A DNA stretch of 48,062 bases, from NCBI GenBank assembly GCA_028714995.1, contig JAQTLI010000001.1, positions 1-48,062 of the forward strand, written 5' to 3'. This document shows positions 19,532 through 42,209 of the stretch, in pieces. The notes beneath the pieces are model-generated. The model was not told the origin of the DNA. It searched no databases and worked only from the letters and a program-made list of their open reading frames with translations. The stretch is from Methylobacter sp. (GTDB taxonomy: Bacteria; Pseudomonadota; Gammaproteobacteria; Methylococcales; Methylomonadaceae). The position numbers and the translations under genes are program-made. How positions within the stretch are numbered: the first letter of the stretch is position 1; the number at the start of each line of letters is the position of its first letter.

Positions 19532-19556
19532 GGCGTCTCTTTTGATTGCATGAAAG

Positions 19557-19575: not shown

Positions 19576-19602
19576 TATTATTTAGCCAAAGGACTCTATC
19601 AA

Positions 19603-20782: not shown

Positions 20783-20804
20783 GGATGCTTGCTTGGCAGA
20801 GGCG

Positions 20805-21998: not shown

Positions 21999-23451
21999 TG
22001 AACAAAGGGAAATGCAAAGTGACGGTCGTACCTTTACCGGGTTGGGATTCGATGCTCACCGTTCCACCATGCATTGCCATGATAGACCTGATAATAGCCA
22101 AACCCAGCCCGGTGCTGTGGGAGTCGGCAGAGCGAGCCTGATCGACACGGTAGAAGCGGTCGAACACTTTTGGGAGATGCTCTCGCGCAATGCCGCATCC
22201 GTTATCACTGACATGGATAGACACGCCATCTGCGCTTGGGGAAGGCTCCACGACCAGCTTGATCTGCCCACCCAGAGACGTATGGCGGATAGCGTTGGCG
22301 AGTAAATTAGTGACCGCACGCCGGAATAGGATGGGATCGGCTTCCAGGCCAGCCTCGCCCTCGCATTGAATCGTTACCCCCTGTTCTTCGGTCACGGCTT
22401 CGTAAAAATCACGGATCGCCTCCAGTTCTTGGCGCACATCGAGCCGGGCCAGTTGCAGAGGAACCTGGGCGTTGTCTGCGCGGGCCAGGAACAACAGGCT
22501 GTCGATCATGCGGGAGAGTCTGCCGCACTCCTCCAGGCTCGACTCCAGTACATTGCGATACTCGGTCTCCGAGCGAGCACGAGCAAGCGTGACTTCGGCC
22601 TCGCCCATCAGATTATTGATTGGCGTGCGTAGCTCATGCGCCAAATCCGCGGAAAACTGGGTAAGCCGAGTAAACGAGTCTTCCAGGCGTCCGAGCATTT
22701 GATCGAAGGCTTCGGCAAGCGTCCTCAGTTCCCGAGGCCAACGAGTCGGCTCGATGCGTTCATGCAATTGACTCGCGGTAATGCGTTGAGCGGCACGGGT
22801 GATGTCCTGCAAGGGTCGCATGCCCCGGCGTGCAACCAGCGCACCGAGCAATGCTGAAAGTAATATCCCGAATGGCAGTATCATCGCCAGTTTGCGCTGG
22901 TAATCGGTGAGTAGCGCATCTTCACGGCTGATATCCAGCGCCACCTGAATTACGCGGGATTCACCTGCCTCATTAACCACTTGCGCCGCCAACAGAAGGT
23001 AAGGATGACCGTCTGTCGTGTGCCACTGTAAGCTGTTCTCGGCCAAGTCGCCCCGTTTCGTCTCGGCGGCAGGCATTGGGAAAACCATAGCGGGAACAAC
23101 TTTTGCCATACCAGGCGTTTCGATCACCACAATACCCTGGGGTTCGAGAATGCGTGAAAAATAAGCGTAATAGGGTGTGACCTTTGCTGTCACCGCCTCC
23201 CATTGAACTTCTTGTTCAAGGGAAGTCCAATTATCCCCGTGCTCTTTTAAGAGTATTTGCAGGCTATGCACTTTGTCAGCAAGAAACTGTTTGTCTTCCT
23301 CGCGGAGGTTGATCACTACCGCCTCGTATAAGAACGCGGTAACCACAATCAGTAATGCGGACGCCGAGAGGGTGTAAAGCAGCGTTAATCGCCCGGCAAT
23401 CGAACCGGGGTCTCGGTCGATCTTATCGTTCTTCAAGGACGTAGCCGACAC
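21976..23451 (-). CDS. Heavy-metal sensor histidine kinase (CusS/CzcS family)
   Basis: Two TMs, [15 protein letters not shown]-box, NLLANA, DNGCGI, GLGLAI. Confidence 0.93.
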
Positions 23452-24763: not shown

Positions 24764-25879
24764 TCACGCCCCGGGTGCCTCTGGTCGTTCGCCGGTTGGG
24801 GCGAATATGGGGATGTCGTGCTGCCAAGATCCAACGCCCTCTATCTCAAGTAGGAAGCGGAACGGAAGCCAATTACCATTTTGTCCAGAGGAAAGTTGCT
24901 CGATGCTCTGAACACGTAATACGCTCTGCAACGGCGTGTAATCCTGCTTTGTGATTGAATCGTAATAGGGCACGCAGGCCAGCCGGATGACTTCCAAGTT
25001 GATCAGGCGCAGGAGCCATGGCGAATCTCGGAATAGATCGAAATACTCTTTGATCCGAGTTCCGAAGATCGGGTTGAATTGCATTTCTCCGCGAAAAGTA
25101 GATAGGCATGACCTAATCTTTTGGGGAAGGGCCGCCAAGCCTGTAACAGTGGCAAAGTCACCATTGACTGAGAAAAGGTCGTGCGCGTCGCTGAGCGCAA
25201 GATCAGTCGGAATATTGTGCGCGCTAGTGCGGGGAAAGCTTTTAAGCACCCGGCACGTAACAATGTAGCCAGCATCTGTCTTCTGCCACACGGGAGCGGC
25301 AGCCAGTTGTCGGCCATCGCCTAACGCGTTCACCAACACATAGCGGTCATACCTGTCGATACGATCAAAGCGCTCGCTAAACTTGATGAGCGCGGAAAGA
25401 TCACCAATGAGGAAGTGGTCGATGCGCAGCTGCCACTCACACTCAATAGTGCCAATTACTTCACCAATAAAGACCAAGTCTTGGCCAAGCGCCACGAAGT
25501 CTGTTTCCGTTCTAAGCCTGGAGCCACTAAGTTCTGAGGACACTTGGCTCTCATGATCTAACTTCATCTTGTGAAGAACGTCCGCTGTGTATCGCATCTC
25601 GTCCCTGTCAATCTCAGTGCTATGGTTTGCACATAACCAGATGCCGTTTTCAATGTGAGAACGTTGCTCTGGTGTCATCGAGAGGAGATAGCGACGAGAA
25701 CCTGGCGCAGCTCCATGGATATGGGCCGCTACCCCAATATTGACATGAGCAATAGGTGACTCATCACTAGGGCCTGAAGTTGGAGATCCACAACCAGGAA
25801 ACGAACACCGATGGTTTGCGCGGAGGCCAAGCACTCTTATCGTTTTTTTTGAGAAATTATCGCGGTTCGATCCTGCCAT
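24764..25879 (-). CDS. HNH endonuclease-domain protein with a C-terminal gp25/baseplate-wedge-like domain
   Basis: N-terminal CSFPGC...AAHI...NGIWLCANH..EID; C-terminal DLALSDAHDLFSVNGDFATVTGLAALPQKIRSCLSTFRGEMQFNPIFG. Confidence 0.75.
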   Translation of the reverse strand: MAGSNRDNFSKKTIRVLGLRANHRCSFPGCGSPTSGPSDESPIAHVNIGVAAHIHGAAPGSRRYLLSMTPEQRSHIENGIWLCANHSTEIDRDEMRYTADVLHKMKLDHESQVSSELSGSRLRTETDFVALGQDLVFIGEVIGTIECEWQLRIDHFLIGDLSALIKFSERFDRIDRYDRYVLVNALGDGRQLAAAPVWQKTDAGYIVTCRVLKSFPRTSAHNIPTDLALSDAHDLFSVNGDFATVTGLAALPQKIRSCLSTFRGEMQFNPIFGTRIKEYFDLFRDSPWLLRLINLEVIRLACVPYYDSITKQDYTPLQSVLRVQSIEQLSSGQNGNWLPFRFLLEIEGVGSWQHDIPIFAPTGERPEAPGA

Positions 25880-26236: not shown

Positions 26237-27259
26237 TCAAATCTTAATCCGCTCAACCTCTTCGAGAGTGATCGCATCGTTGGTGCGGTCGTAGAGCTTG
26301 GTCGTGCGGGGGCTTTCGTGCGCGGCCATGGTCTGGGCGTTTTCGAGGGAGCCACCTTCCTCCAGATAGGCGGTGATACCAGTTGCCCGGAAGGTGTGGC
26401 AACCGATTGGGAAGGCGATCTCGGCTTCCAGGGCGCGTTTCCTGACCATGCGCCAGGCGTCGACGCGGCTTAGCCGTTTCTCGCTGAGGGTTCCAGTCTT
26501 GCGGAGAGCCGGGCGGAAGAGGGGACCACGCTTGTCATCGCAGAGGCCTGCGGCATTCAGATACGCATCGAGATAGGCCTCCAGCTTGTGATGGCAGGGC
26601 ATCTCATGACGCTTGCCACCCTTCTCGTGCAGGCGCAGCCACCAGCGTTTGCCCTCGGGGTAGTAGTCTTCGACCCGCATGGCGACGACGGCACCGATGC
26701 GGGCGAAGGCGTAGCACATGACGCTGATCAAGGCCTTGTCGCGCAGGTCGAGCAGGGTATCAGTCGGGATGCTGTCGAGGAGCAGCCTGGCCTGTTCGGC
26801 AGTGAGCACGGGCGTCTTGCCGCGTTTGACCACATGCTTCGGCCCGCGCACCGCATGCGCCGGGTTAGTGGCGACGATCTGGCCGGTGACCAGCCAGTCG
26901 AAGCACATGCGGATGGCGGCCAGGTGCTGCTTGACCGAGGGTTTTTCGTAGGTGTTTTGCAGGCTCTCGATATAGGCGGCGACATGCAGCGGTTCGATAT
27001 CGACCAGATCGAGAATATAGGCATCCTGTTCACACCAGGCGAAGAACCGGTTCACGGCCAGGTAATAGGCTGCACGGGTGTTCTTGTTGCGAATCGTGGC
27101 GGCGAAGAATTCCAAAAAACGCCGCGCGGCATTCTCGCCGTCGCGGGCAATGAGACTCGGCACGATCGTCCGATGACTTTCGATCCTGACCGCAAGAGAA
27201 CGATCCGGGCACTCCAGTTTTTGGAGTGTCTTAACAGTGGTGCCAGAAGTGTCGTTCAT
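26237..27259 (-). CDS. Tyrosine recombinase (XerC/D-like, phage integrase family)
   Basis: Catalytic residues FARIG (R), HEKGGK (K), HTFR, AAHES, KLYD (Y); purine-rich RBS before ATG 27259. Confidence 0.93.
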   Translation of the reverse strand: MNDTSGTTVKTLQKLECPDRSLAVRIESHRTIVPSLIARDGENAARRFLEFFAATIRNKNTRAAYYLAVNRFFAWCEQDAYILDLVDIEPLHVAAYIESLQNTYEKPSVKQHLAAIRMCFDWLVTGQIVATNPAHAVRGPKHVVKRGKTPVLTAEQARLLLDSIPTDTLLDLRDKALISVMCYAFARIGAVVAMRVEDYYPEGKRWWLRLHEKGGKRHEMPCHHKLEAYLDAYLNAAGLCDDKRGPLFRPALRKTGTLSEKRLSRVDAWRMVRKRALEAEIAFPIGCHTFRATGITAYLEEGGSLENAQTMAAHESPRTTKLYDRTNDAITLEEVERIKI

Positions 27260-27280
27260 GTTTCCCCCTTGTTGTCCCAA

Positions 27281-27316: not shown

Positions 27317-27451
27317 ATTAGGGTAGGGTGGATAACTTTTAGTTAATAGGAATACCGTTTGCTTCTATCAGCTCGCTACGCTTCATCCCATTAGCATTAA
27401 TACTTATTGTTTGAAAGAGTTGATGTCTCTATCCTACAGTTAGCTGTATAA

Positions 27452-27489
27452 GGGGCAGTCGCAGAATTCGGAAAAAATAGTACGCTAAG
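27452..27489 (+). repeat. Tn501/Tn1721-like 38-bp IR
   Basis: GGGGCAGTCGCAGAATTCGGAAAAAATAGTACGCTAAG. Confidence 0.88.
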
Positions 27490-27944
27490 GCTTCGGAGTG
27501 AATCTATAGCTGTTAATCAGCGTCCAGTATTTACCAGTAAACAGCGTCATAATTGACCATGTAAATTATTATTACACTGTTTTTTAAGGTTCATTTGTTG
27601 GTGAGCCGGTAAAAATCGATGCTGAAAGTGGTAACTTTTGCACGCTGATTTCCAGGAATAAAAGCACAATGAGTAAAAAACAAGATACAGAAGCCAAAAA
27701 ACCATTGATATTTGATATTTGATATTTGCTATTGCCCTGTGTGCGATGCTCCACGCAATAAAGGCAATCACGCTAAATGTTCAAAGATTACGAAACTGAA
27801 ACACATGAAAGAAAGAGGAGAATTAAAATAAAAATAGCGGCATAAGGCTCATGTAATTTTGCTAATTATTTTAATTCTTAAGCAAACCATCATCTTGATG
27901 GGTTTAAATACGATTTCATATTGTTGACTCTTTGGAAATTCCAT

Positions 27945-27981
27945 AACCTGCTTAGGCACTTGCCTTTGCAGGTTTTTTTTT
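27945..27981. terminator. Probable intrinsic terminator
   Basis: AACCTGC..AGGCA/TGCCT..GCAGGTT stem followed by a T run on +; just downstream of the 99-aa minus-strand gene. Confidence 0.5.
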
Positions 27982-27994
27982 ACTTTAGGCAATG

Positions 27995-28294
27995 TTAAAA
28001 ATGCTCATTGCGGTAGGCTTCATAGGTTTTTACACCAAATAGAACCGCGAAAATGACTAACATCAACGGCAGCAGATAAGGCGCCCATCCAAAATTAGTG
28101 ACGATTGGCGACAAGAAGGGAGATTTTTCTGCGGTCGCAATCAATGTATCTACCCAGTCGTATGCTATATACGAAAGAAATAATAAGACCCCACTGACTA
28201 CTGCACCGATCTGCCAGACAAAGCCTGTCAAATCGGACAACAAGTCGAACAGTTCATCTGAACTGGATTTTCTTTTATAACGTCTACGTCCCAT
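27995..28294 (-). CDS. Small two-TM membrane protein
   Basis: RBS GAGG; basic N-terminus MGRRRYKRK followed by two hydrophobic helices. Confidence 0.7.
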   Translation of the reverse strand: MGRRRYKRKSSSDELFDLLSDLTGFVWQIGAVVSGVLLFLSYIAYDWVDTLIATAEKSPFLSPIVTNFGWAPYLLPLMLVIFAVLFGVKTYEAYRNEHF

Positions 28295-28410: not shown

Positions 28411-29541
28411 TTACTGGTGGCGTAGGAACAGTAGATCGTTCCATTTCGCTGTTTCATAACCGTGCCTGGCTATCAGTTCAAACGTGCTTTCCGTGAGTTG
28501 ATTAAGGTCAGTAGGCCAATCGGCGGATGCTTGAATCATCTCGTCTGGAAGCCATTGATCCTCTGACAGCATGTTTTCATCAACTTGGCCTTTGTACTGC
28601 GCAGCAACCCTTCGTGGATTGGACCCGAGCTGAATATAACGTGCTACTTCTGGGTTTTCTTGAATAAAATTGACTAACGCACGTACCCTAAGCGCTCTAG
28701 CTTGGTCCATTGTAATGTCCACAATGCGCTTTGCCCGCCCTTTGTGAAACTGAGGTGGAAGTGGGGCTCGTTTTAATGGTGCGCCTGCATCTGACACGAT
28801 GAGGCGCTCAATAGATGATTTGAGCTTCTGTTTCCCGACATCGAAGATGGGCTCCATACCGAGGTTGTCATAAACGCCACCATCCATAATGTGAAGACGC
28901 TGAAAAGGTGGGGTTATCGGTTGTTCAGAGCCAGGAGCGTCACCCCATTGTAGCCGCTTGTACCATTGCAGGCTGGTTGCATCAACGCTAAGTGGGCCGA
29001 TTAGGAGAGGGAAAGCTGCTGAGGCGGCCATAGCCTCCGACACTTTAAAATGCTGAGCGTCCGCTTCTCCAAGTTCATAATCCCCACATTTTCCTTTTTT
29101 GAATCGGAACCTCCGCCCTGTTTCAGCGGTAGTTCCATTCGCTGACCAAACTGGTAAATTCGGCACTTCTTGTAATGTTGCACGCACATCCCACAGTTCT
29201 TCAATAGCCATAGCAAGTACGTTAGCCCTAGAGAATAAGTAGCGCCAGTTGCAAGGGCATATAAGCAAAAGTGTTGCATGTTTTTGGAGATTATTTTTGG
29301 TCAAAAGCTGACGAATTTCAGGAAGAACGGTTGTTAAATATTCCTGTGAACTAGGCCACTTCCAGCCAGAAATACGGAAAACCAGCCCCGTAAATAAACT
29401 GCCCCCAGATACAGTTGATATGTCAGTGATATATTCAAGTTTGTTCTGTTCGGCTAGCCACTTCAAGACACCAGCATGAAACACCATGGCACGGACACCA
29501 CCTCCAGACAACGCCAAGCCAATTTTTCCAGAAGTCGTCAT
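28411..29541 (-). CDS. Patatin-like phospholipase
   Basis: LALSGGGVRA oxyanion loop, STVSGG nucleophile, MDGGVYDNLG catalytic Asp. Confidence 0.92.
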   Translation of the reverse strand: MTTSGKIGLALSGGGVRAMVFHAGVLKWLAEQNKLEYITDISTVSGGSLFTGLVFRISGWKWPSSQEYLTTVLPEIRQLLTKNNLQKHATLLLICPCNWRYLFSRANVLAMAIEELWDVRATLQEVPNLPVWSANGTTAETGRRFRFKKGKCGDYELGEADAQHFKVSEAMAASAAFPLLIGPLSVDATSLQWYKRLQWGDAPGSEQPITPPFQRLHIMDGGVYDNLGMEPIFDVGKQKLKSSIERLIVSDAGAPLKRAPLPPQFHKGRAKRIVDITMDQARALRVRALVNFIQENPEVARYIQLGSNPRRVAAQYKGQVDENMLSEDQWLPDEMIQASADWPTDLNQLTESTFELIARHGYETAKWNDLLFLRHQ

Positions 29542-29542
29542 G

Positions 29543-31813
29543 CTAATCTTCCTTTACCGCAGCGAAGTGCCAACGTTCATCTTGTTCACCGACAATCAGC
29601 ATCAGTGCAGGCAAACCATCACGATGTAGTTCAATACCAAGATGAGCTAGTTGCAAAACATCAGCACTGCTGGCTGCTGCCGTTGATCCTGGTGGATGCG
29701 AGTGCCATTCGCCCAAGTAGCCAACGATATTTGCAGTTCTGCGCTGTACCTCACTTATAGTATTAGCAAGGCCCTCTATTCCTCTGGAGAAACCGCTTGT
29801 GTCGCCTTGACTATCTGATGGTGCGGGGAGGACATCAACAATATAAACATTCTTTTGCGTGAGATCGAAATAACCCAGTAGAACTCCGCCAGTTTCCGAC
29901 GGCAGCGCCTGTAGTCTAAGTTCTCTTACTTTCGACCGTAACCCATCATCCCAGACAACACTTAGTCCATTAATGTTGTATTTGAGAACGGGGTGGACAA
30001 ATAATGCATCCGTTGCAACTGCTCCGGATTCTGGATCGTAATGCCAAACCTTAATCGCCGCCGCTGGGTTTTCTGAGGCATGACGAATCTGCCGGGAAAG
30101 GTTTCCAGCATGAAGAGCCACCAATTCTCCGGAAATGACTGTCGACAAGTCTCTACAGCCTCCTCCTGTCCAAAGATAGCTTTTGTTGCCGTCAAGGTGG
30201 GCTTCGCCCCACGCTTGGTTGAGAATGCCCCTGTAATACTGAGATTCCACTCCATCCAGTCGAACTGAGCGACAGGCATTCTCCGCCAATAAAGCACAAC
30301 CGTTACCACTCGGAGTCAAGAATACGGATATTCCGCGAGGAAAATCATCCTGTGAAGCGTGCTCTCTGGGGTAGTCCAGGGTTGTGGTTACGTCAATGAC
30401 TAGCGCGGCATTCTTAAGGGCATCAATGACTTCTGTTGAATCAAAGTCAGTTGCACTTTTCGGTATTGCTCTTGTTTTGCTTCCAGTGCTACCCCAAAGC
30501 GCTTCATCGAGATATCGAACCACATCGGCCTTATTATGGCCGACAAATTGATCAAATGCAGTGTGCCGTGCCAAGTTGTGAGGCTTTACATGGTCAGGGT
30601 CAATGAGCGTCCATTCTCCCCATCCAGATCGGCTCCACAGGTTGAATATCTCACTACCAAGAGCACCAACTCCTGCAAGTACGCCTTTGGGGCCGGAACT
30701 CAGTATTCCTGAAGTTTGGCGGGCATACTCAGGGGTGAAGGGTTGGAGTATATCAATAGGTTCAAGTTCGACGCTTCGCCATGCGTCTGTCGGTTCTACC
30801 TGAATTCCAAGGTTATGCCGTAGGAGGTATTGGTTCTCGTATTTGTCGAGCACTCCGCCCTTAAGTCCGATCTCTTCAAGACTGATTGGCAGGAAATACG
30901 CCTTGTTATCAAATCTAGCAATATCGCTGCCCGCTTCTTTGAGCAACGGAACATTCAAAATCAGTATGGTTTTGATGTTATTGACCTTGAGCAAATTTCC
31001 CTCAACTCGCTGCCGAATCTCAGCAAACAGTTCTTTGATGAATGGAGCGCCTCGAGCATCAAGTGTGTCAGAGAGTTCTCCAAGATTCCGAGGAAAGTGC
31101 TCGATTCTCCCCTGAATCACAGAGTTTAGTCGAAGAGCAATGCAGGATGTGTTGAGTACTTGATCTGATACAGCGTCTACTGACCTTTGCATCAAACCAA
31201 CGATTGTTTGCCTGTTATTACCTCGATCTGGCCTGAATTCCAGAGCAAGCCGAAACTCCTTGTTATTGACCTTTTCGTCAAAGTCATGCGGCAGAACAAG
31301 TTCTTTTGGTGCACTGAAATAAAGTTGCTCGACTGGCTGATCCGAGCGGTGAAGCTGCTCTAATGCTGTCTGCTCTAACCACCAGAGGATGCGTTCTAAG
31401 TGCTTCTGTGGTGTCCAAGTCCTGGCAATAACCGGCCACGGTTCAAAGTAGAGACACAGACTAGATGGGGCTCCATTCAAAACGTGATTTTGGTGAGGGG
31501 TAAGCGGGAATCCGGTACGTAGCGCTCTAACTTCCGGCGGGCGGTTCACCTTATTGGAAAAACAAAGAGCAAAACGTTCTCGATACTCAATTCTGGGTGC
31601 ATTGTTTGGCGGTATCCGATCACACTCGCAATCCACAATCACTAGCTCAGAGTATCCATCAATATCTTCATACTTACGTACTTCGATAGATGTGAAAGAA
31701 CGATGGCTACGTACCGCAAACCAAGTCTGCCGAGCCGCATCGACTTTCATGTTAGTCGGGGACTCTCCTTCAAGAGGCTCACCAATTACAAAAAACTCGG
31801 CGGTCATCATCAA
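29543..31813 (-). CDS. E2-E1(ThiF)-JAB fusion (Cap2/Cap3-like ubiquitin-like conjugation and deconjugation protein)
   Basis: E2: PEVRALR..FP.TPHQN...SLCLY; E1: GVGALGS, DPD...HNLARH, GGGCRD; JAB: ETGG, GEWHSHP, SSAD. Confidence 0.92.
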   Translation of the reverse strand: MMMTAEFFVIGEPLEGESPTNMKVDAARQTWFAVRSHRSFTSIEVRKYEDIDGYSELVIVDCECDRIPPNNAPRIEYRERFALCFSNKVNRPPEVRALRTGFPLTPHQNHVLNGAPSSLCLYFEPWPVIARTWTPQKHLERILWWLEQTALEQLHRSDQPVEQLYFSAPKELVLPHDFDEKVNNKEFRLALEFRPDRGNNRQTIVGLMQRSVDAVSDQVLNTSCIALRLNSVIQGRIEHFPRNLGELSDTLDARGAPFIKELFAEIRQRVEGNLLKVNNIKTILILNVPLLKEAGSDIARFDNKAYFLPISLEEIGLKGGVLDKYENQYLLRHNLGIQVEPTDAWRSVELEPIDILQPFTPEYARQTSGILSSGPKGVLAGVGALGSEIFNLWSRSGWGEWTLIDPDHVKPHNLARHTAFDQFVGHNKADVVRYLDEALWGSTGSKTRAIPKSATDFDSTEVIDALKNAALVIDVTTTLDYPREHASQDDFPRGISVFLTPSGNGCALLAENACRSVRLDGVESQYYRGILNQAWGEAHLDGNKSYLWTGGGCRDLSTVISGELVALHAGNLSRQIRHASENPAAAIKVWHYDPESGAVATDALFVHPVLKYNINGLSVVWDDGLRSKVRELRLQALPSETGGVLLGYFDLTQKNVYIVDVLPAPSDSQGDTSGFSRGIEGLANTISEVQRRTANIVGYLGEWHSHPPGSTAAASSADVLQLAHLGIELHRDGLPALMLIVGEQDERWHFAAVKED

Positions 31814-32943
31814 CCTGCACGCGGCGGTGTAGAAGAAATTACTGCGGCTGCCCCTGTGATAGTTCTGCCAAGAAATCGGAGCCCACGTTCAGAGATTTCA
31901 AACTCTAAGGGATGCGGCTTACTCGCATTGGGCTCTTCCATAGTGACGTAAAATTTACGTCCTCCAACTTCCCGCAAGTACCTTTCGTACGTTTTCCTTG
32001 CTTGGATATGGGGCGGTTGTATGGCTTTATACATATCTGCTGTGTCGGGAATTGGATTGCTTAAACTCACGATATAGGCATCCTTTTGTCCCGCGCGTAA
32101 CAGTTCTTTTATGCCATCTTTCGGCTCAGTTTCTTTGTCTCCCTTCTCGTCCGAAAGCGCAAGGTAACTGCAATGGTGTGGAACATTTAAGAGATTCCAT
32201 TGCAGGCGGTCTAGCCTTTTGTGGAACTTAGTGGTTGAAACAATTTCTTCCAGCGCTTCCGACGTCGAGTCACCGACAGAGAAATAATCGGTTCTGTACC
32301 CGTTAACCTCAAACCTGATCTGAAAAATGAGCGAGGCATCGTTGCGCAAGATATCGCCCTCGTCGCAATGCTTCATAAAAGGAGAGTGACAGAAGAATTC
32401 GACATTATCGGCTTCCAAAGTAAAGCCTCGTGCTAATGTACCGGCGTCTGTAAAAAGTCCCTTGCGATCTTCAAAGGAGATGTCGTTCTGCTCCATCCAA
32501 TCTTTGAGAGCTTCTGGTTTCGAGAATACTTGAATCCCCTTCCCATCCCTTAGGCGTTTTCGTGCCTCCTGTCGAAGAAGTATATACTCAGCGCTTTGCT
32601 GGTCGTTACTCGCCTGTTCCAAGAGAACCGCTGCCGGAACCCACAACTCACGAATCTTTATGCGACCATTTCCCTTGTACTTATCTGCTTGCTCAAGCTC
32701 AAAGAACTCGGAAAATCCAGCGATGTGATCCTTGTCAGCGTGGGTAAAGGCAACGACATCAAAGTAGTCCCGTTTTGCATTATCAAGCTCATCACGTAGA
32801 CGTTTCTTGATATCAATTACCGGATGGCCGTCATCTTCTCCTTGAACCTGATGGTGGAAGTCGAACAGGAGCCGCTTCCCGTTATCAAGGATGATTTGGC
32901 TAGTGTCACCGTTGCCGACGGGATAAAAGACTACTTTGTGCAT
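31810..32943 (-). CDS. Metallo-beta-lactamase-fold (ComEC-like) hydrolase, 6A-MBL type
   Basis: FYPVGNGD, THADKDH, NDAS, GDS, PHHCS; RBS GGAG before ATG 32943; C-terminus PPRAG. Confidence 0.88.
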   Translation of the reverse strand: MHKVVFYPVGNGDTSQIILDNGKRLLFDFHHQVQGEDDGHPVIDIKKRLRDELDNAKRDYFDVVAFTHADKDHIAGFSEFFELEQADKYKGNGRIKIRELWVPAAVLLEQASNDQQSAEYILLRQEARKRLRDGKGIQVFSKPEALKDWMEQNDISFEDRKGLFTDAGTLARGFTLEADNVEFFCHSPFMKHCDEGDILRNDASLIFQIRFEVNGYRTDYFSVGDSTSEALEEIVSTTKFHKRLDRLQWNLLNVPHHCSYLALSDEKGDKETEPKDGIKELLRAGQKDAYIVSLSNPIPDTADMYKAIQPPHIQARKTYERYLREVGGRKFYVTMEEPNASKPHPLEFEISERGLRFLGRTITGAAAVISSTPPRAG

Positions 32944-33020
32944 ACGTGTTTCTCCATTAGAGTAGTGGTGTTCTGTTCCATTCCCGTTCACTTAACCAGA
33001 TGAACGAGAGTTTAAAAAAA

Positions 33021-33575
33021 TCAGCCGATTCGGTGGTAGGTGAATTCGACCCCCCCAGACTCAGCAACATCCTCACGACGTAGCAAGAAGCCCTGTTCCC
33101 AAAGTTGTTTAAACTTGGTACTCGCATTGGCAATCGATATATCTGGCATGGATGCCGCGAACTCAGATGCTCTCGTGCGCTCGCGCTTCAGAGCAAAGTT
33201 GAATGCGCCCAGTGTTCCTTGGCTTGGGGTGATCCCAATTACTTGCCCGTTTTTCCCTTCCCAGACCATTATCGGTTGCCCCTTTCGTTCAGCGGCAGCA
33301 TCCCAGTTCTCCAGCATGTCCTGATCGGCTAGATCAGTAAAACAGAAGCCTTTCTTGCCACGATAGCGGCGGGCAAGTTCGACAATCGTTTCAGATGCGA
33401 ATGAGATATCGACTCTGCGCACCTGATCAAGCGATACCTTAAAGGTCATAGTCCCAGGATTTGACTCCACAAAGTCAATCAGCTGCTGATATACCTTGCG
33501 GCCCTGATCTCGACCCCATCCCTCTTGGGAATCCATGAAGTCACGTAATTTTATGATGGCTGATTTCTCGTTCAT
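33021..33575 (-). CDS. STAS-like plus winged-HTH regulator (CapS-like)
   Basis: VSLDQVRRVDISFASE STAS phosphoacceptor motif; SIANASTKFKQLWEQGFL...GGVEFTY wHTH. Confidence 0.75.
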   Translation of the reverse strand: MNEKSAIIKLRDFMDSQEGWGRDQGRKVYQQLIDFVESNPGTMTFKVSLDQVRRVDISFASETIVELARRYRGKKGFCFTDLADQDMLENWDAAAERKGQPIMVWEGKNGQVIGITPSQGTLGAFNFALKRERTRASEFAASMPDISIANASTKFKQLWEQGFLLRREDVAESGGVEFTYHRIG

Positions 33576-33582
33576 TGAACAC

Positions 33583-33611
33583 ATTAAATCGGATTTATCT
33601 GTTGGTGTCAA
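33583..33611 (-). promoter_or_regulatory. Sigma70-type promoter for the STAS-wHTH gene, likely leaderless
   Basis: TTGACA (33611-33606), 17 nt, TTTAAT (33588-33583), 7 nt, ATG (33575). Confidence 0.6.
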
Positions 33612-34515
33612 GCCTAAACGTGAAGCAAATATGTGTTCCCCAAATTAATGGAAGGCCATCGTAGCAATAGGCAGTATTTGGTTTGTAACCTTCCTTGCCG
33701 GGGGTGAGGAGCACACGGATGTTCGGAAGTCTGACATCAAGTTCACCGTTGTACTTTATAGCCTTTGCCGCACTTCCTTTAAGTCCACAGCCGCGATCCG
33801 TGCCATGCCGGGAGATGCCCTGTCGAAATATCTCCACCAGCAAATCTATGTCAGACAGATTCTCTAAGGAAGGAAATTCCGTTTTGATGGCCGGTCTTAA
33901 TGTACTCATAATGCCAAGACCACTATCTGAAACCGCGACTTTAACGCGATCACCACGAGGGTAAACCTGCAAAGCAGCATACCCATCAATCTGGGTGCTG
34001 CTGTGCGAAAAAATGTTATCAATCAGTTCAGCGAAGATTGTCCAAGCTGCGCCCTCTAGTCCTTTCGCATCGGGCCGGTTACCGCATGAATCCATCATCG
34101 CGTCGGTAAGACGTGATGGTAAATCTACGTCCCTATCTTTTGGGTTGATACTGGCGATTTCGACTAGCCTAGTATTCGTTCCCCCATAAATCTCAGCCGC
34201 GGAGAGCGACGGCCGAGCCGGTAAGACATCTACGTCTTTTGCCAGATGGTCGAAGAATCCCATTCTATCGAGGTACCCCATAGTACCCGCCTCTCCTTCC
34301 TCAAATTCAAGCCGTACGCGACGCATGGAGAGGCTGAGTTGGTTGATCAAAGATAGGAGCCTGACAGCGCTGTCGACCATGATCCTGCAGCCCGTTGGAA
34401 ACCGGAACAACACTTCATAGACGCCCGGTCCATGAGGTGCGCAACTGCTGCGTAATGTACTTTCTAGGGCTGATGCATCGATCCATGCCGAGGGAAACAC
34501 AATTTGACAAATCAT
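33595..34515 (-). CDS. STAS-like plus GHKL anti-sigma-type kinase (CapK-like)
   Basis: GYLDRMGFF, ELIDNIFSH (N box), VSDSGLGI (G1), RGCGL (G2); no His phosphoacceptor domain. Confidence 0.8.
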   Translation of the reverse strand: MICQIVFPSAWIDASALESTLRSSCAPHGPGVYEVLFRFPTGCRIMVDSAVRLLSLINQLSLSMRRVRLEFEEGEAGTMGYLDRMGFFDHLAKDVDVLPARPSLSAAEIYGGTNTRLVEIASINPKDRDVDLPSRLTDAMMDSCGNRPDAKGLEGAAWTIFAELIDNIFSHSSTQIDGYAALQVYPRGDRVKVAVSDSGLGIMSTLRPAIKTEFPSLENLSDIDLLVEIFRQGISRHGTDRGCGLKGSAAKAIKYNGELDVRLPNIRVLLTPGKEGYKPNTAYCYDGLPLIWGTHICFTFRLDTNR

Positions 34516-34609: not shown

Positions 34610-36328
34610 TCATGCAACTTCCTCTAACGCCGGAGCCAAGGCTTCATGCAGCACGGCTTCGAGAAACCGACGGCTGTCGGTCTCAGTGGTGTTGAGTTGG
34701 GCTTCCAGTTGGTCGCATAGCGCCATTAGTTCATCGACCTTGGTGACGATGCGGGTTTGCTCGGCGAGGGGTGGTAAGGGAATCAGAACTGCGTTCAATA
34801 TTTCAAGGTTGATGTTTTTCTGGGCAGTGGCTGGAGCGAACTCAAGCAGATTAGCCTTTGCCGTCCGCACAAAATACTCGAAATAGCGAGCGTTTTGAAA
34901 CATCGAGGCAGGTATGAACCCAACAACACTATCAGGGAAACATGCATCGAAGCTAAGAATTCCGCTATCAGCAATGTTAGCGGCAATAGTGATGCAGAGC
35001 GTCCCAGTAGGCCACTTCATACTTTGTGCGAGTCCAACATCGTTGTATTTGTTGGTATAAGTTTGGATTACGCCCTGAGAGCGTGCGACATCTCCCGTCT
35101 GAATAAGCAAATGATTGCCGCCTTCAAACAACTTTGAATCATTCCGTGGACGATGTTTTGATTTACCTCTCCCAAAGATTCCAAGTTCAGGAAACCTTGC
35201 CCATGACCAGCCTAACGGTAGAACAAATGGAGCTTGCTCCAAGTCGACGTCAGGCAGTGCAGCGCCTTTTTTTCTCGCCCCATCCTTTACCAACCCAGCA
35301 TTCTCTTCCTGAATCCGCTTGAGCAATTCAGCAGCCGGCTCGTCGTTGGGGTCTTGTTCCACCAGTTTGCCGCGCACGGCTAGGTTAAGGATGGTTTGAC
35401 GCAATTGCTTAATGTGTGCCGGACGCTTGGTGATGCGCGGCAGATGGTTGAAGATGAAGCAGACGTGTTCTCGGAAGGCTTCTTCGTCATCGACTGGCAG
35501 GTTAAGCCGTTGCAAACTTGCCGCCCCCAGACGATCAAGACTTTGCTCCCGCTCGGTTTTCGCTGCCTCCAACTGGTCGCACAATGTCATCAGTTCATCG
35601 ACTTTGGCGACAATGCGGTATTGTTCTGTTAGGGGCGGGATGGGTAGAAAAATATTCGCAATCGATTCACGATTTAGTGTCGCTCCTTTAATCGCGCCCT
35701 TTGTATCGCCCTGTCGTGAAAACTGAGGAAGCACCTTGAAGAGGTAGCTGTCCAGCTCTGGCAAATGTGGATAAATAGAAATGATCGCTTCATTATGGAA
35801 AGCCGAAACACCTAGCCTCGAAATCTTTCCAATAGTCAGCTTGAAGCTCATGATCATAGTGCCGACGTGTGCTGGCTCCGAACTAAAGACTTGCTTTTTA
35901 GCCTTTTCGCTGACAGTTTCCTTAGTGGTGATAACATCACCGCCATCTTTCATATCGGCGATGCTAACCCACGGGTAGTCGCCGGTATTCCAAAAACTCA
36001 AATCATGACGAGATGGCGTCCTGCCAGCCGAGAAATCCGCTATTCCTCCGAAGCGGACCCATTGCCAATTATTAGGCAGTTCAAAGGGATATTCCTCAAT
36101 TTCAACCGGCGACTTTTGTTCCTGCTTTCTGATATCCCCATCTTTCACCAACCTGACCTTCTCGGCCTCAATCCGTTTGAGTAATTCTACCGCTGGTTCG
36201 TCGTTTGGGTCTTGATCCACTAGCTTGCCGCGCACGGCAAGGTCGAGGATGAAGCGGCGCAGGCGCTGGATAGCGTCGGGGGCTTCACTGAGGCGGTCAA
36301 AGTGTTGTAGCAGGTATTCGGCGTTCAT
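34610..36328 (-). CDS. hsdS: Type I R-M specificity subunit
   Basis: Two TRDs with repeated ILxLAVRGKLVxQDPNDEPA and PxPPLxEQxRIVxKVDELM conserved regions. Confidence 0.95.
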   Translation of the reverse strand: MNAEYLLQHFDRLSEAPDAIQRLRRFILDLAVRGKLVDQDPNDEPAVELLKRIEAEKVRLVKDGDIRKQEQKSPVEIEEYPFELPNNWQWVRFGGIADFSAGRTPSRHDLSFWNTGDYPWVSIADMKDGGDVITTKETVSEKAKKQVFSSEPAHVGTMIMSFKLTIGKISRLGVSAFHNEAIISIYPHLPELDSYLFKVLPQFSRQGDTKGAIKGATLNRESIANIFLPIPPLTEQYRIVAKVDELMTLCDQLEAAKTEREQSLDRLGAASLQRLNLPVDDEEAFREHVCFIFNHLPRITKRPAHIKQLRQTILNLAVRGKLVEQDPNDEPAAELLKRIQEENAGLVKDGARKKGAALPDVDLEQAPFVLPLGWSWARFPELGIFGRGKSKHRPRNDSKLFEGGNHLLIQTGDVARSQGVIQTYTNKYNDVGLAQSMKWPTGTLCITIAANIADSGILSFDACFPDSVVGFIPASMFQNARYFEYFVRTAKANLLEFAPATAQKNINLEILNAVLIPLPPLAEQTRIVTKVDELMALCDQLEAQLNTTETDSRRFLEAVLHEALAPALEEVA

Positions 36329-37782
36329 CGCAGCAGCGCCTCGGCTAGAATAGACTTGAGCTGGTCCCGTAAACTGTCGGTTTTCTGCTCATCCTGTTCC
36401 AACTTGACCAGCAGCTCTTGCGGATCGCCGTGGTCATTGGCCGCGATATGCGGGTTTTTGAAGTCGAGGTTGTAATTGCGCGCCTTGATTTCATCGAGGC
36501 CGACTTTCCATGAGACTTCGGATGCCTGCCGATCTATACGTTCCGTTCCACCCCACCACTCCACACAGCCTTGCATGTGATCGACCTTGATCGGTCTAGT
36601 CATCGAATAGGCTTTTTGGCCTTTCGGTACACGGTGCTCATAGAACCAGATGTCCTGCGTCGGTTCGCCCTTCTCGAAGAACAGCAGGTTAGTGCCGACG
36701 CTGGCATAGGGTTTGAACACGCTACTGGGCAGGCGAACGATGGTGTGCAGGTTACATTCTTCCAGCAGGTGTTCCTTGAGGCGAGTTTTAACTCCTTCGC
36801 CAAACAAGGAGCCATCCGGCAACACGATGGCGGCGCGGCCGCCTGGCTTCAAGAGGCGAATGAACAGTGCCAGAAACAGGTCGGCTGTTTCCTTAGTGCG
36901 GAAATGAGCCGGAAAGTTGGACTCAATGCCGTCTTCTTCTTTTCCGCCAAACGGCGGATTGGTGAGGATGATGTCCACTCGGTCTGATTGGCCATAGCTA
37001 ATATAAGGCCGTGCCAAGGTGTTGTCGTGGCGCACGAAGCTGGGGTCTTCAATGCCGTGCAATAGCATATTGGTGATGCAGAGCATGTGCGGGAGTTGTT
37101 TTTTCTCCACGGCTCGCAGGCCGGCTTGCATGGCCTGTTCGTCCGCGACCTTTTTTACATAGCGGTTGCGCATGTGGCGAATGGCACAGGTGAGAAAACC
37201 GCCTGTGCCACAGGAAGGGTCGAACAGGATTTCTCCCGGCTTGGGGTCGATACGATCCACCATGAAAGCAGTGACGGCACGGGGGGTGTAATACTCACCC
37301 GCGTTGCCCGCGCTTTGCAAGTTGTTGAGCAGTTGTTCGTAAATGTCACCGAAGTGCTTGCGTTCTGACAAGTCGTTGAAATCGACGCTGCTGATTTTGT
37401 TGATGACCTGCCTTAGCAGCTGACCAGACTTCATATAGTTGTAGGCGTCTTCAAACACGCTGCGCACCACGCGGCTGCGATTGGCGTTCTGGCCTGTTGT
37501 TGGCAGTTCCTTGAGCTTTGGAAATAGCTCGGTATTGATGAAGGTTAGCAGCGCGTCACCGGTGATGCCTTCCGGATCAGCTGCCCACGTCCGCCATTGC
37601 AGGGCATACGGGATCGGCGAGCGGTAGTTATCCTGCATCACCTCCAATTGTTGATCCTGATCGTCGATGATTTTGAGAAAGAACATCCAGCAAAGCTGGG
37701 ACAGGCGCTGAGCGTCACCATCGACGCCGACATCTTGGCGCATGATGCCTTGAATGGATTTAACGGTATTTCTTGCAGACAT
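36325..37782 (-). CDS. hsdM: Type I R-M N6-adenine methyltransferase
   Basis: GEYYTPR, DPSCGTGGFL, TNPPF. Confidence 0.96.
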   Translation of the reverse strand: MSARNTVKSIQGIMRQDVGVDGDAQRLSQLCWMFFLKIIDDQDQQLEVMQDNYRSPIPYALQWRTWAADPEGITGDALLTFINTELFPKLKELPTTGQNANRSRVVRSVFEDAYNYMKSGQLLRQVINKISSVDFNDLSERKHFGDIYEQLLNNLQSAGNAGEYYTPRAVTAFMVDRIDPKPGEILFDPSCGTGGFLTCAIRHMRNRYVKKVADEQAMQAGLRAVEKKQLPHMLCITNMLLHGIEDPSFVRHDNTLARPYISYGQSDRVDIILTNPPFGGKEEDGIESNFPAHFRTKETADLFLALFIRLLKPGGRAAIVLPDGSLFGEGVKTRLKEHLLEECNLHTIVRLPSSVFKPYASVGTNLLFFEKGEPTQDIWFYEHRVPKGQKAYSMTRPIKVDHMQGCVEWWGGTERIDRQASEVSWKVGLDEIKARNYNLDFKNPHIAANDHGDPQELLVKLEQDEQKTDSLRDQLKSILAEALLR

Positions 37783-37785
37783 GGA

Positions 37786-40236
37786 TTAGGAGACTTCCTG
37801 ATAGAGAGCGGCTTGCAGTTCATGGACAGCGTCTTCAAAGCTGGCTCGTGAACCAAATTCTTTGATGAGCTGGAGCGGTGTTCCCATCGTGTTGAAGGGG
37901 GAAATTTCAAGAATATGGACGTTATCCAGCCCGCTGACCACGCCTTCATCTTGATACTTGGTGAGCAGAGCTTCAAGTACGGCCCTGGCTTGCTGGCCGT
38001 ACTTGGTGAATACGTCACGTTTGCGCACGTTGTTAGCTCGGTCGCGACGCGTGAGCGGCGGCTGATCGAAGGCAATGTGGCAAATCAGGTCGAAGGGGTC
38101 GAGGTCTTTGCCGACCTCTTCCATCAACGGCTCCAGAAACAGCCCCTCTTCCGCCAATTCTTCAATAATGGCCTCCTTGCGCTCGTCAGACTTCCAGCGG
38201 GCAAGGAACTTATCAAGGCTGGAGAAATGGGCGCGGATAGCCTTACGGCTGTAATCGCGCAGGGATTCAGTCACCAGCTTGCCGTTTTCGTCGAGGTATT
38301 CCACCTGCTCGATGATGACGGTCACAGGCTTGCCTTTGACATAGAATTTGGTGGGCGGCCGGTCAGTACCGGGCGGCAGAGTAATATCTGGCGGATCGAC
38401 GACTACAGTTTCGCCTTCGCCGGGCTGAGGCGGAATGGGGTCTCCGTCATCAGGTGGCGGTGTGACATCCGGCGGGGTGACCGGATCACCTTCGCCCGGT
38501 TCGTAAATCTGCACCGGTTCGCCGTCAAATTCAGGGTCGGCAAAGTGATTGGTGGCTTTGCGGAAGTCGATCAGGGTGAAGTAATACTTCTTGGTGTCTT
38601 CATGGACGCGGGTGCCGCGTCCAACAATTTGCTTGAATTCGGTCATGGAGCCAATTTCACGGTCGAGCACGATCAACCGGCAGGTTTGCGCATCGACCCC
38701 CGTAGAAAGCAGGCGTGAGGTGGTGACAATGACTGGGTATTTGGCTTCCGGGTCAATAAAGTTGCCAATCTGATCCGTCCCCTCCTTATCGTTGCCGGTA
38801 ATGCGCATGACATAGCGGGCGTTCTGTTGGACGAGGTCTTGATTTTCATTGATGAAGGCTTGGCGCATTCGGGCAGCGTGTTCGGTATCCACGCAAAAGA
38901 CAATGGTTTTCTGGAATCGGTCGCCACTTTGCTTGAGGTAGTCCGATACCCATTTGGCGACGCGCTTGGTGCGCTCGTCGATCACAAGGTTCCGGTCAAA
39001 ATCCTTTTGATTGTAGATGCGGTCTTCGATTTCATGGCCATTTTGGTCGGTTTCCCCTGACTGAGGACGGTAGCCTTCTACATCCACATCGAGATGCACC
39101 TTGATGACTTTGTAGGGGGCAAGGAAGCCGTCACGAATGCCCTGCTTGAGCGTGTAGGTGTAAACCGGCTCGCCGAAGTAATGGATATTTGAAACATACT
39201 CGGTTTCTTTGGGCGTGGCGGTGAGGCCAATTTGCGTGGCGTCAGAAAAGTATTCGAGGATTTCTCGCCAAGCCGAATCTTCGGCAGCACTGCCCCGATG
39301 ACATTCGTCGATGACGATGAGATCGAAAAAGCCGGGTGAAAACTCGCGAAACAGCTTTTGCCGCTCCTCCGGGCCGGTGATGGCTTGATACAGTCCGAGA
39401 TAGATTTCGTAGGCGGTATCAATGCGGCGGATTTTGTCGATGGCTGTCGTAATGACCTCCACGCTGCCATCAGCCCGTTCAATGGTTTTGGCTCCGGTGC
39501 TGAGTTTGGCCATGGCCGCGCCGAAGGGGCGGAAGTCGTTGACCATAGTCTGGTCGATCAGCACATTGCGGTCAGCCAAAAACAGGATGCGTTTTTTCTG
39601 TCCGGCCCTCCAAAGCCGCCAGATGATCTGAAATGCGGTGTAGGTCTTGCCGGTGCCGGTAGCCATGACCAGCAAAATGCGGTTTTGACTCTTGGAGATG
39701 GCTTCAACCGTGGCATTGATGGCATTGCGCTGGTAATAGCGCGGTTCCTTGCCGCTGCCATCGTCGTAATAGGGCTGCAGGACGATCTTCTCCTGCTCGG
39801 GGACTAGCCCCTTCCATGCGCAGTATTGCACCCATAACTTGGCGGGGCTTGGGAACGTGTTTAAGGCAAGATTGGTTTCCATTTGCGTGCTCAGGCCGGT
39901 ACTGTCGTGAAACACGAAGCCGTCGCCGTTGGATGAAAATACAAAGGGAATATCTAGCGTGGCGGCGTAATCCAGCGCCTGCTGCATCCCGTCGCCCACG
40001 GCGTGGTTGTTATCCTTGGCTTCGATCAAGGCAATCGGAAAGTGCTGGTAATAGAGGATGTAATCAGCCCGCTTGGCCTTACCCCGCGTAACCAACTTGC
40101 CCCGCACGATGATGCGGCCTTTGGTGAAAAAGACTTCGCGACGAATCTGGAGTGCCTCATCCCATCCGGCCTGAATGACGGCTGGGGTAATGAACTTGGC
40201 GCAAATATCGGATTCGCTCAGGGTCTTTTTGCTCAT
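37786..40236 (-). CDS. hsdR: Type I R-M restriction subunit (EcoAI/EcoEI-like)
   Basis: ADY...IEAK nuclease, MATGTGKT, DECHR, TATP, QIVGRGTR, EcoEI-type C-terminus. Confidence 0.96.
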   Translation of the reverse strand: MSKKTLSESDICAKFITPAVIQAGWDEALQIRREVFFTKGRIIVRGKLVTRGKAKRADYILYYQHFPIALIEAKDNNHAVGDGMQQALDYAATLDIPFVFSSNGDGFVFHDSTGLSTQMETNLALNTFPSPAKLWVQYCAWKGLVPEQEKIVLQPYYDDGSGKEPRYYQRNAINATVEAISKSQNRILLVMATGTGKTYTAFQIIWRLWRAGQKKRILFLADRNVLIDQTMVNDFRPFGAAMAKLSTGAKTIERADGSVEVITTAIDKIRRIDTAYEIYLGLYQAITGPEERQKLFREFSPGFFDLIVIDECHRGSAAEDSAWREILEYFSDATQIGLTATPKETEYVSNIHYFGEPVYTYTLKQGIRDGFLAPYKVIKVHLDVDVEGYRPQSGETDQNGHEIEDRIYNQKDFDRNLVIDERTKRVAKWVSDYLKQSGDRFQKTIVFCVDTEHAARMRQAFINENQDLVQQNARYVMRITGNDKEGTDQIGNFIDPEAKYPVIVTTSRLLSTGVDAQTCRLIVLDREIGSMTEFKQIVGRGTRVHEDTKKYYFTLIDFRKATNHFADPEFDGEPVQIYEPGEGDPVTPPDVTPPPDDGDPIPPQPGEGETVVVDPPDITLPPGTDRPPTKFYVKGKPVTVIIEQVEYLDENGKLVTESLRDYSRKAIRAHFSSLDKFLARWKSDERKEAIIEELAEEGLFLEPLMEEVGKDLDPFDLICHIAFDQPPLTRRDRANNVRKRDVFTKYGQQARAVLEALLTKYQDEGVVSGLDNVHILEISPFNTMGTPLQLIKEFGSRASFEDAVHELQAALYQEVS

Positions 40237-41288
40237 AATTCCTTCTTTAAATCCTTTGTGTCCTCGTGAAAATCTCCCTCTTCTTCAGGGGCGTTCTGGA
40301 GATAAAATTCATGGAGTTTTTCCCGTAGAAGCTTTTTATCCGGCAATTGAGTTTGGTATTCAGCGATTAAAGCCGGGGAAAGGGTGCGACTCAGGGAATA
40401 TTCAACCACTTCGTCATCTTTGCTGGCACAGAGCAACACGCCGATAGCAGGGTGCTCATGGGACTTGCGGACATCACGATCCAAGGCTTCGAGATAGAAA
40501 GCCAGTTTCCCAAGATATTCGGGTTCAAATCGCCCAACTTTCAACTCAATCGCAACTAGACAATTGAGTCCGCGATGAAAAAGCAGCAGATCAAGCGCGA
40601 AATCCCGTCCCCCCACCTGCAAAGGATATTCAGAGCCGACAAAACAAAAGTCGCGGCCTAATTCAATCAAGAAATTCTTTAACTGACTCACTAAGCCTCG
40701 GTGCAAATCGGCCTCGGTGTGGCCGTCTGGCAACCCCAGAAAATCCACCATATAGGCATCTTTGAAAATGTTCACGCCGGTCGGGTAAGTTTGTGTCACC
40801 AGTGGTGACACTTTTGGCGGACTGAGCACGGTGCGTTCAAATAACGCGGTTTTGAACTGGCGTTCCAGTTCGCGCTTGCCCCAGTTTTCTTGAATTGACT
40901 GCCGCAGATAAAATTCACGTTCCTCTGGGTGTTTGCTCTGGCTGAGAATAATGAGATTGTGAGTCCAAGATAATTGTCTCACCAGGGGCGAGAGTTTTTC
41001 ATCATCCCGGTAGGCCTCATAAAACTGCCGCATCCGAAATAAATTACGGCGGGTAAAGCCTCGAAGCCCTGGCTGGGTCTGCGCGATGTAAGCCGCCAAT
41101 TGATCGACGACACCGTCACCCCATTCGGCGCTTTTGATCTTGCGACTGATGGTTTCACCAACGTGCCAATAAAGGTCGATCAAAGCGGTATTGATTGCCT
41201 GAAACGCTTTTTGACGAGCCGCCTCAATGAGGTTTGTCACCTCGTGAAAAGCAACTGCGGCAATTTGGTCTGGCGTTGTCTTGCTCAT
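40233..41288 (-). CDS. yhcG: YhcG/DUF1016 PD-(D/E)XK nuclease-domain protein
   Basis: LYWHVG, LSWTH, FKDAY, ELGRDF, DLLLFHRGLNCLVAIELK; overlaps the hsdR start. Confidence 0.92.
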   Translation of the reverse strand: MSKTTPDQIAAVAFHEVTNLIEAARQKAFQAINTALIDLYWHVGETISRKIKSAEWGDGVVDQLAAYIAQTQPGLRGFTRRNLFRMRQFYEAYRDDEKLSPLVRQLSWTHNLIILSQSKHPEEREFYLRQSIQENWGKRELERQFKTALFERTVLSPPKVSPLVTQTYPTGVNIFKDAYMVDFLGLPDGHTEADLHRGLVSQLKNFLIELGRDFCFVGSEYPLQVGGRDFALDLLLFHRGLNCLVAIELKVGRFEPEYLGKLAFYLEALDRDVRKSHEHPAIGVLLCASKDDEVVEYSLSRTLSPALIAEYQTQLPDKKLLREKLHEFYLQNAPEEEGDFHEDTKDLKKEL

Positions 41289-42203: not shown

Positions 42204-42209
42204 GAACAC

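Follow-up and report, generated by a model that had tools for sequence, protein, structure and literature searches.

A 6A-MBL anti-phage locus of Methylobacter sp. with a patatin-like phospholipase in a third-gene slot that related loci often fill with membrane proteins

The first 48,062 nucleotides of Methylobacter sp. contig JAQTLI010000001.1 (the window, analyzed at its full length) contain an operon that, judged by its sequence, is a 6A-MBL anti-phage system. A metallo-beta-lactamase-fold hydrolase (MBL) gene is followed by a gene for a single-chain fusion of ubiquitin E2, E1 and JAB peptidase domains (E2-E1-JAB), and the next gene encodes a patatin-like phospholipase that sequence comparison identifies as a regular but optional partner of the system. 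Related loci almost always carry in this third slot either a patatin or one of four unrelated families of small membrane proteins. This pattern is compatible with a core made of the MBL, acting as a ComEC-like nuclease, and a partner that breaches membranes, with the ligase and an upstream CapK/CapS switch as control layers and no cyclic-nucleotide signal. We advance this reading tentatively and rate its chances a little below even.

Five co-oriented minus-strand open reading frames (ORFs) make up the operon at 28411-34515, in the order capK, capS, MBL, E2-E1-JAB and patatin, and the ORF listing agrees with the initial annotation of this DNA on their linkage and place. The MBL gene occupies 31810-32943 and encodes 377 aa if translation begins at the likely ATG at 32943 (the full ORF, 31810-32991, has 393 aa). 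The ligase gene (29543-31813; 756 aa) and the patatin gene (28411-29541; 376 aa) follow on the same strand. A 4-nt overlap had been described between the MBL stop and the ligase; this is correct if the ligase uses a TTG start, but the overlap shrinks to 1 nt (TGATG) with the next ATG. The 1-nt gap between ligase and patatin was described accurately. A 99-aa ORF with two hydrophobic segments (27995-28294, minus strand) lies beyond a 116-nt gap after the patatin gene; it was ruled out as a part of the system, having homologs in none of 158 related loci.

Both core proteins score above the NCBIfam cut-offs for 6A-MBL, as had been proposed from the gene content. The MBL matches NF058524 with 397 bits (cut-off 220) and the fusion matches NF058523, the 6A-MBL cap2_3 family, with 625 bits (cut-off 320). 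Pfam places E2 (PF14457), ThiF/E1 and Prok-JAB domains in this order, the nearest among solved sequences are a JAB peptidase and Cap2, and the protein, with its JAB in fused form, scores below the Cap3 cut-off. The catalytic motifs were said to be intact, and they are in fact invariant among homologs. In 78 aligned ligases this holds for E2 H107/C120, E1 G381/G383/G386, D407, K428 and C553, and JAB E640/H704/H706/S715/D718, with D405 kept in 77; in 66 MBLs it holds for H68, D70, D72, H73, D225 and H256/H257. Iyer et al. 2006 (PMC1779556) classed this arrangement as their operon type 6a. Anti-phage activity of 6A-MBL is credited to van den Berg et al. 2024 by the review PMC13276650, and PMC13700489 does no more than list the system.

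The locus shares with the described system an MBL gene followed by a single-chain E2-E1-JAB and the lack of a cyclase or ubiquitin-like gene, but differs in the third gene coupled downstream; the available sections of PMC1779556 and the definitions NF058523/NF058524 describe two genes and make no mention of a patatin. To count what occupies this position, 158 related loci (3 plasmid, 75 genome and 80 metagenome, near-duplicates included) were chosen by likeness to this ligase. A genome scan with the single ligase gave no match, but an alignment-based scan did. The slot sample comprises the 97 loci with at least 3000 nt upstream, at least 2500 nt downstream and a ligase of at least 690 aa, reduced to 83 nonredundant loci at less than 90% identity; the membrane families were chosen after viewing the neighbors. 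A patatin is present in 41 of the 83 and one of four unrelated membrane families with two to four helices in 45. Six have both and three have neither, so that 80 of the 83 carry one or the other. All six loci with both genes also contain a second MBL.

Patatin and membrane genes nearly exclude each other in these 83 loci (Fisher p = 9e-14, a value inflated by kinship). On a FastTree phylogeny of the ligase the patatin label changes 12 times, and 10 of these changes are forced by strong branches. Among 10 independent pairs, loss of the patatin goes with presence of a membrane gene in a mean of 6.7 and against it in 0.1 (median p = 0.016). A taxon-even survey (three samples of about 400 genomes) added 26 other genomes over the ligase cut-off. 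Their loci have a patatin in 5 cases (one fused), neither gene in 3 and a membrane protein in 18 (17 by profile, 1 by hydropathy), although seven of these 18 look like one clade from one family and about four appear to have been counted before. Two ligases over the NF058523 cut-off (L187 and L188) have no MBL, patatin or membrane gene detected nearby and adjoin SRAP genes; they may be orphans or belong to a different system.

The four membrane families are not detectably related to one another in profile comparisons, and ESM Atlas and Pfam assign them no family. With a Csx27 profile, one protein of the family designated TMd matches (E = 0.002), and the other three families are not assigned to Csx27. 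Two reviews (PMC8209922 and PMC7642515) report a link, made in 2019, between Csx27-family membrane proteins and genes for ubiquitin systems, WYL proteins and competence. Several pairs of membrane gene and MBL neighbor match the PADLOC candidates PDC-M48A/B, which likewise combine a ComEC-like MBL with a small membrane protein. What sets the present locus apart from PDC-M48 and from Csx27-family proteins is its partner, a soluble phospholipase, and the likely conjugation tail of its MBL. In six cyanobacterial loci, some of them near-identical, a membrane gene is followed by an S1/P1 nuclease gene. Across the related loci, no ligand-sensing family and no nuclease or TIR effector family recurs as the sole third gene.

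The patatin matches PF01734 and belongs to a clade linked to ComEC-like MBLs. The catalytic motifs G13-G15/R17, S45 and D220-G-G are invariant in 51 homologs, as are R146, R285 and R287. Its model (predicted local distance difference test score, pLDDT, 92.7) is no closer in fold to the CBASS (cyclic oligonucleotide-based anti-phage signaling system) phospholipases CapE (Z = 22.1) and CapV (21.5; range for the two 20-22) than to cPLA2 (24.9) or PlpD (23.9), which argues against any special tie to CBASS enzymes. Identity to CapV/CapE is 13-16%, and neither this patatin nor six relatives match a PADLOC CBASS effector at E = 0.01. These tests do not support placing it among the CapV-type proteins of CBASS.

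Of the 158 loci, 67 have a patatin homolog. Where the downstream flank measures 1200 nt or more (136 loci), the patatin gene directly follows that of the ligase in 61, and in most of these the two overlap by 4 nt; the concern that it might rarely co-occur is answered by these counts. Its sequence identity tracks that of the ligase (Spearman 0.87) and of the MBL (0.80) in 39 loci. The best 120 of 324 longer patatin matches include 19 E2-E1-JAB-patatin fusions, whose patatins belong to a more distant clade; in the three closest matches the patatin is fused to a C-terminal hydrophobic domain. The initial view of an expanded system containing a phospholipase therefore holds insofar as the patatin is a recurrent, coinherited partner, but not as a requirement, since membrane proteins replace it in about half to two thirds of loci.

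Reverse searches place the same partners beside MBLs in genomes where no ligase is found. A patatin profile matched nine other genomes among 371. In the two best (252 bits each), the patatin gene is directly followed by an MBL gene lacking the glycine tail, and no ligase scores over its cut-off (L252:7337-9605 in G470 and L253:6858-9190 in G316). Six genomes of one family have a patatin standing alone with no MBL within 1.5 kb, and the remaining one is a weak match to a different protein. A profile for the membrane family TMb found five of the 371 genomes, four beside a ligase and one with a tail-less MBL and no ligase (L254:7645-9586 in G489). Ten plasmid patatin regions were viewed out of 61 records. 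Five adjoin a ligase; in three of the other five an MBL without the tail is encoded no more than about 4 kb away, and two of these matches score weakly. The patatin and tail-less MBL pair may be an undescribed defense candidate. Because both kinds of partner pair with tail-less MBLs without a ligase, the constant association appears to be between an MBL and a membrane-acting protein, with the ligase as an added layer.

The lack of a ubiquitin-like gene was noted at the outset and is confirmed in the window; no separate beta-grasp gene of the Bil/Bub type occurs in the operon or recurs around the 158 loci. A hidden gene of this kind was considered and rejected, because the MBL carries its own glycine tail and would not need one. 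Its C terminus (STPPRAG) forms a flexible tail of low confidence in the model, and the last four residues, P-R-A-G (31813-31824, minus strand), are a likely ubiquitin-like conjugation handle. G377 is invariant in 66 homologs, and all 136 full-length related MBLs have [RK][AV]G within their last 14 residues (96 terminal, 40 with a short extension). The second, ligase-independent MBLs of related loci listed in the tail survey have no such motif. By analogy with Cap2, which conjugates the C terminus of a CD-NTase, and Cap3, which cleaves it (bioRxiv 2022.03.31.486616), the conserved tail makes the MBL itself the likely conjugated moiety. This idea is already in print, as PMC11601596 groups MBL pathways with CBASS and Pycsar conjugation and calls the conjugated proteins "signaling enzymes".

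More distant loci have other tails that end in glycine. Clade-specific forms (PHG, GHG, RHG and GFG, with glycine at or near the end) occur in L218-L221, L224, L228-L235 and L167, which suggests that tail and ligase covary. The tail motif is doubled in 7 among 109 MBL tails; in L030, L050, L103, L118, L124 and L128 the copies stand in tandem, as if to offer two JAB cut sites.

If the published behavior of its parts carries over to this operon, then single-stranded DNA (ssDNA) from damage would activate CapK, and CapS would be phosphorylated and leave its operators so that the operon is transcribed. By analogy with Cap2 and Cap3, JAB would trim the MBL tail and E1 would adenylate it, after which E1 C553 and E2 C120 would transfer it to an amine group of a phage or host component in a linkage that JAB could reverse. 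The slot and the ligase-free pairs suggest that the MBL and its membrane-acting partner form the core unit, which the ligase may control or target. Speculatively, local activation of the patatin could come from its contact with the conjugate or the ligase at a membrane, either the host inner membrane or the vesicle of early phage infection; proximity to the ligase is suggested by the E2-E1-JAB-patatin fusions. The breach might then give the nuclease access to DNA or finish the infected cell.

Several observations favor this nuclease and breach reading, beginning with the 6A-MBL membership and the intact catalytic residues. Nearly all occupants of the slot are membrane-acting proteins. The ligase fusions of patatins, the parallel identities of patatin and ligase and the ligase-free pairs count in its favor as well. 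The MBL model (pLDDT 91.8) is closest in fold to the BLACT domain of ComEC (9ic4, E = 3e-14), and its PADLOC matches are to effector-type MBLs (RTasMBL, LmuA and Avs1a), so that it is predicted to be a nuclease of this kind. 6A-MBL is listed among jumbo-phage defenses beside Juk and Dionysus, both of which act on the phage membrane vesicle (bioRxiv 2025.09.30.679545). The cyanobacterial loci, with their membrane and S1/P1 genes, again combine a membrane protein with a nuclease.

Several results weigh on the other side. Without the membrane genes that accompany a second MBL, the either/or test is not significant (median p = 0.5), and because of this and the PDC-M48 matches some membrane genes may belong to a neighboring two-gene pair of that type. 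Unrelated families replace one another as third gene among loci whose MBLs are still 80-85% identical, and a small-molecule link would explain this at least as well as contact would. The third gene may even be dispensable, since the NCBIfam definition has two genes only. No membrane helix is present in the patatin, the fused patatins are only 24-29% identical to it where the alignment spans most of its length, and its arginine-rich set (R146, R285 and R287) could bind a nucleotide. The nuclease role of the MBL comes from a fold match with a TM-score (template-modeling score) of 0.51 and 15% identity, and the next-best fold is Pce, a phosphorylcholine esterase. Catalysis, target and contacts are all predictions here, drawn from sequence, models and analogy.

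The resemblance to type II CBASS bears directly on what the MBL does. In both systems, by analogy, an E2-E1 ligase and a JAB peptidase would act on the C-terminal tail of a neighboring enzyme, and a phospholipase or membrane protein sits in a swappable slot (bioRxiv 2022.03.31.486616). Here, in contrast, no CD-NTase is present, ligase and JAB are fused, the enzyme conjugated would be a hydrolase and the patatin forms a clade separate from CapV/CapE. A conjugated MBL might nevertheless replace the cyclase and make a small diffusible product from nucleotides or nucleic acid; this product would then activate the patatin or membrane protein, and the cell would be killed. This is somewhat unlikely in our estimate. 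The arrangement resembles that of type I and type II CBASS (an enzyme and an effector, with or without ligase and JAB), third genes swap at high MBL identity, with 8-12 changes on the ligase tree, and the patatin arginines and the term "signaling enzymes" in PMC11601596 agree with it; but the patatin has no PADLOC CBASS-effector match and the nearest MBL relatives are hydrolases used as effectors. The restriction of the slot to membrane-acting proteins also argues against such a product. CBASS-type diffusible signals recruit nucleases and TIR proteins too. A broader form of the same idea, which we consider unlikely, would make ComEC-like MBLs the signal-making enzymes of an unrecognized class of nucleotide-signaling immunity. 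Pairs of an MBL with a patatin or membrane protein would then represent the minimal form of this class and 6A-MBL a ubiquitin-primed one, and a single new messenger derived by hydrolysis would activate phospholipases as well as several membrane proteins unrelated to one another.

It is highly improbable that the patatin responds to a cyclic nucleotide from a CD-NTase encoded elsewhere in the genome. The window has no CD-NTase, as was originally observed, and profiles for SMODS and AGS_C find none in the assembly, which is 89.7% complete and so leaves this explanation some room. (A SAVED search matched none of its control genomes and carries no weight here.) No cyclase cluster recurs around the 158 loci, and the patatin has no CapV-type match in PADLOC. 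In favor of this trigger, a CBASS operon is found at a distance of about 4 kb from one distant plasmid relative. It is quite unlikely that the patatin acts in parallel as a toxin with its own trigger, sharing only the damage-induced promoter and travelling with the cassette as layered defense. That it is optional (5 of 26 sampled loci), convergent or upstream in L054, L124 and L160, and in its relatives solitary in the six genomes of one family or near caspases and S8 peptidases, would suit such a toxin. Its usual position directly behind the ligase, the ligase fusions, the near-exclusion with membrane genes in the independent pairs and its repeated pairing with MBLs even without a ligase all speak for a closer tie. 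A lipid cycle like that of Atg8 is very unlikely. In that case the ATG7/ATG3-like ligase would couple the MBL to an amine of a membrane lipid, and the role of the patatin would be that of a regulator, which makes or removes the anchor, and not that of a killer. Cap2 does resemble ATG7 and ATG3/ATG10 (bioRxiv 2022.03.31.486616), all partners are membrane-linked and no CBASS enzyme is nearer to the patatin in fold than cPLA2 is. The available sections of the cited Cap2 literature contain no lipid conjugation by a Cap2-like enzyme, however, and the alternative membrane proteins could not do the same chemistry, while patatins pair with tail-less MBLs too.

The two promoter-proximal genes had been taken for part of an expanded ubiquitin machinery, but by sequence they are CapK/CapS, the published DNA-damage transcription switch. 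In that pair, ssDNA from damage activates CapK, and phosphorylated CapS leaves its operators (Chambers et al. 2026, PMC13373217). A new type of regulator is accordingly rejected. The capK ORF (33595-34515, minus strand; 306 aa) encodes a STAS domain and a GHKL kinase (HATPase_c) whose predicted motif is E163-x3-N167 and D197. The product lacks the N-terminal helix-turn-helix (HTH) domain, and no room exists for one upstream before hsdS; deletion of this domain from CapK had no effect (PMC13373217, section 11). Homologs (E = 1e-46 to 1e-133) precede capS in five related loci, three of them equally short. The capS gene (33021-33575, minus strand) encodes 184 aa of STAS and winged-helix repressor from the likely ATG at 33575 (full ORF 33021-33611, 196 aa). 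Over about 175 residues it matches the solved CapS chains 9z72 (E = 4e-29) and 9z71 (E = 8e-28) in phmmer, and the phospho-acceptor serine is kept as S58, which aligns with the site mutated in 9z72.

The predicted operators fall where the published ones do, with the narrow form (TTAAaTTAA, 1-bp spacing) before capS and the wide form (10-bp spacing) after it (PMC13373217, section 9). A narrow operator-like palindrome, TTCA-a-TGAA (33571-33579), covers the capS start codon, occurs once in the window and recurs with the same spacing and position in all five related capKS loci, three with TTCA and two with TTAA. These two bear the published TTAAaTTAA. The wide one, TTCA-N10-TGAA with TTAA inside (32987-33004), lies between capS and the MBL gene, also occurs once and is found in exact form in two of the five loci. 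A putative promoter (33583-33611, minus strand; TTGACA-17 nt-TTTAAT) at the end of capK and upstream of capS is the sole match to the search pattern on the minus strand of the window. A generic promoter scan, which found fewer sites than in shuffled sequence, does not list it because its rule requires A at position 2 of the -10 box.

The published pair and this one thus share a STAS-GHKL kinase followed by a STAS-winged-helix repressor with its acceptor serine, narrow and wide palindromes in two intergenic regions and a place between a restriction-modification (R-M) system and an immune operon; they differ in the HTH domain absent here and in the half-site TTCA instead of TTAA. PMC13373217 already lists seven MBL operons behind capKS and reports that, of 443 capKS pairs, 88 come straight after an R-M system (section 7). 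Upstream regulators vary among the 83 nonredundant loci (WYL in 21, CapP-like in 11, CapKS in 4, divergent CapKS in 3 and none detected in 44). A divergent CapK/CapS-like pair stands upstream in the cyanobacterial loci L001, L004, L005, L009, L012 and L013, which have TMb and the S1/P1 nuclease downstream.

Individual parts of this locus and the idea of MBL conjugation are already known. The present analysis adds the CapK/CapS assignment with its operators, the counted either/or membrane slot and the ligase-free patatin and MBL pair. No description of a patatin in 6A-MBL or of such a slot was found in the literature searched, which did not include van den Berg 2024, the final Ledvina 2023 or Makarova 2019. 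The word patatin is absent from the searched main text and supplements (all but two files) of PMC13373217, and the displayed passages of the reviews PMC12035536 and PMC13282480 make no mention of 6A-MBL. In the literature consulted 6A-MBL is a validated system. A membrane-acting third gene is found in 80 of the 83 loci with sufficient flanks, and partners of the same types also accompany MBLs that have no ligase; the counts suggest that the system has been defined with one part missing. The slot pattern also sets a sharp alternative between a diffusible signal and a local membrane breach with a nuclease. This locus is a convenient place to test it, since the patatin is a soluble enzyme whose activity is simple to read out and the operon has an identifiable damage-inducible switch.

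The cassette appears to be mobile, accessory cargo. Its ligase is in none of 30 same-genus genomes, and G403, of the same genus, has hsdR and hsdM at 87-89% DNA identity with no cassette after hsdS. There hsdS is directly followed by convergent genes that resemble gyrB-recF-dnaN-dnaA. In the window the type I R-M operon hsdR-hsdM-hsdS (34610-40236, minus strand) lies directly upstream as context and not as part of the core, and with YhcG (PDC-S02) it extends over 34610-41288. A 371-aa protein (24764-25879, minus strand) whose N-terminal HNH domain is like those of PDC-M68A (E = 1e-24) and CBASS HNH effectors, and whose C-terminal part has no domain assignment, is probably the product of a further defense gene; it was rejected as a part of 6A-MBL, being present in 1 of the 158 loci. 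A tyrosine integrase (26237-27280, minus strand) and two resolvases (41643-42209, minus strand; 3393-3992, plus strand) flank defense and metal-efflux genes, and the segment at about 27350-28010 has 76-95% copies elsewhere in the assembly; together these point to a mobile region. Farther away, a 2597-aa RHS-repeat protein with SpvB, FG-GAP and TcdB_toxin_midN domains (4822-12615, minus strand) is a secreted protein of the Tc/RHS type. LexA/UmuD-type peptidases with SRAP, and RND and cation-efflux genes with a two-component system, occupy 637-2711, 13552-23451 and 44106-46884.

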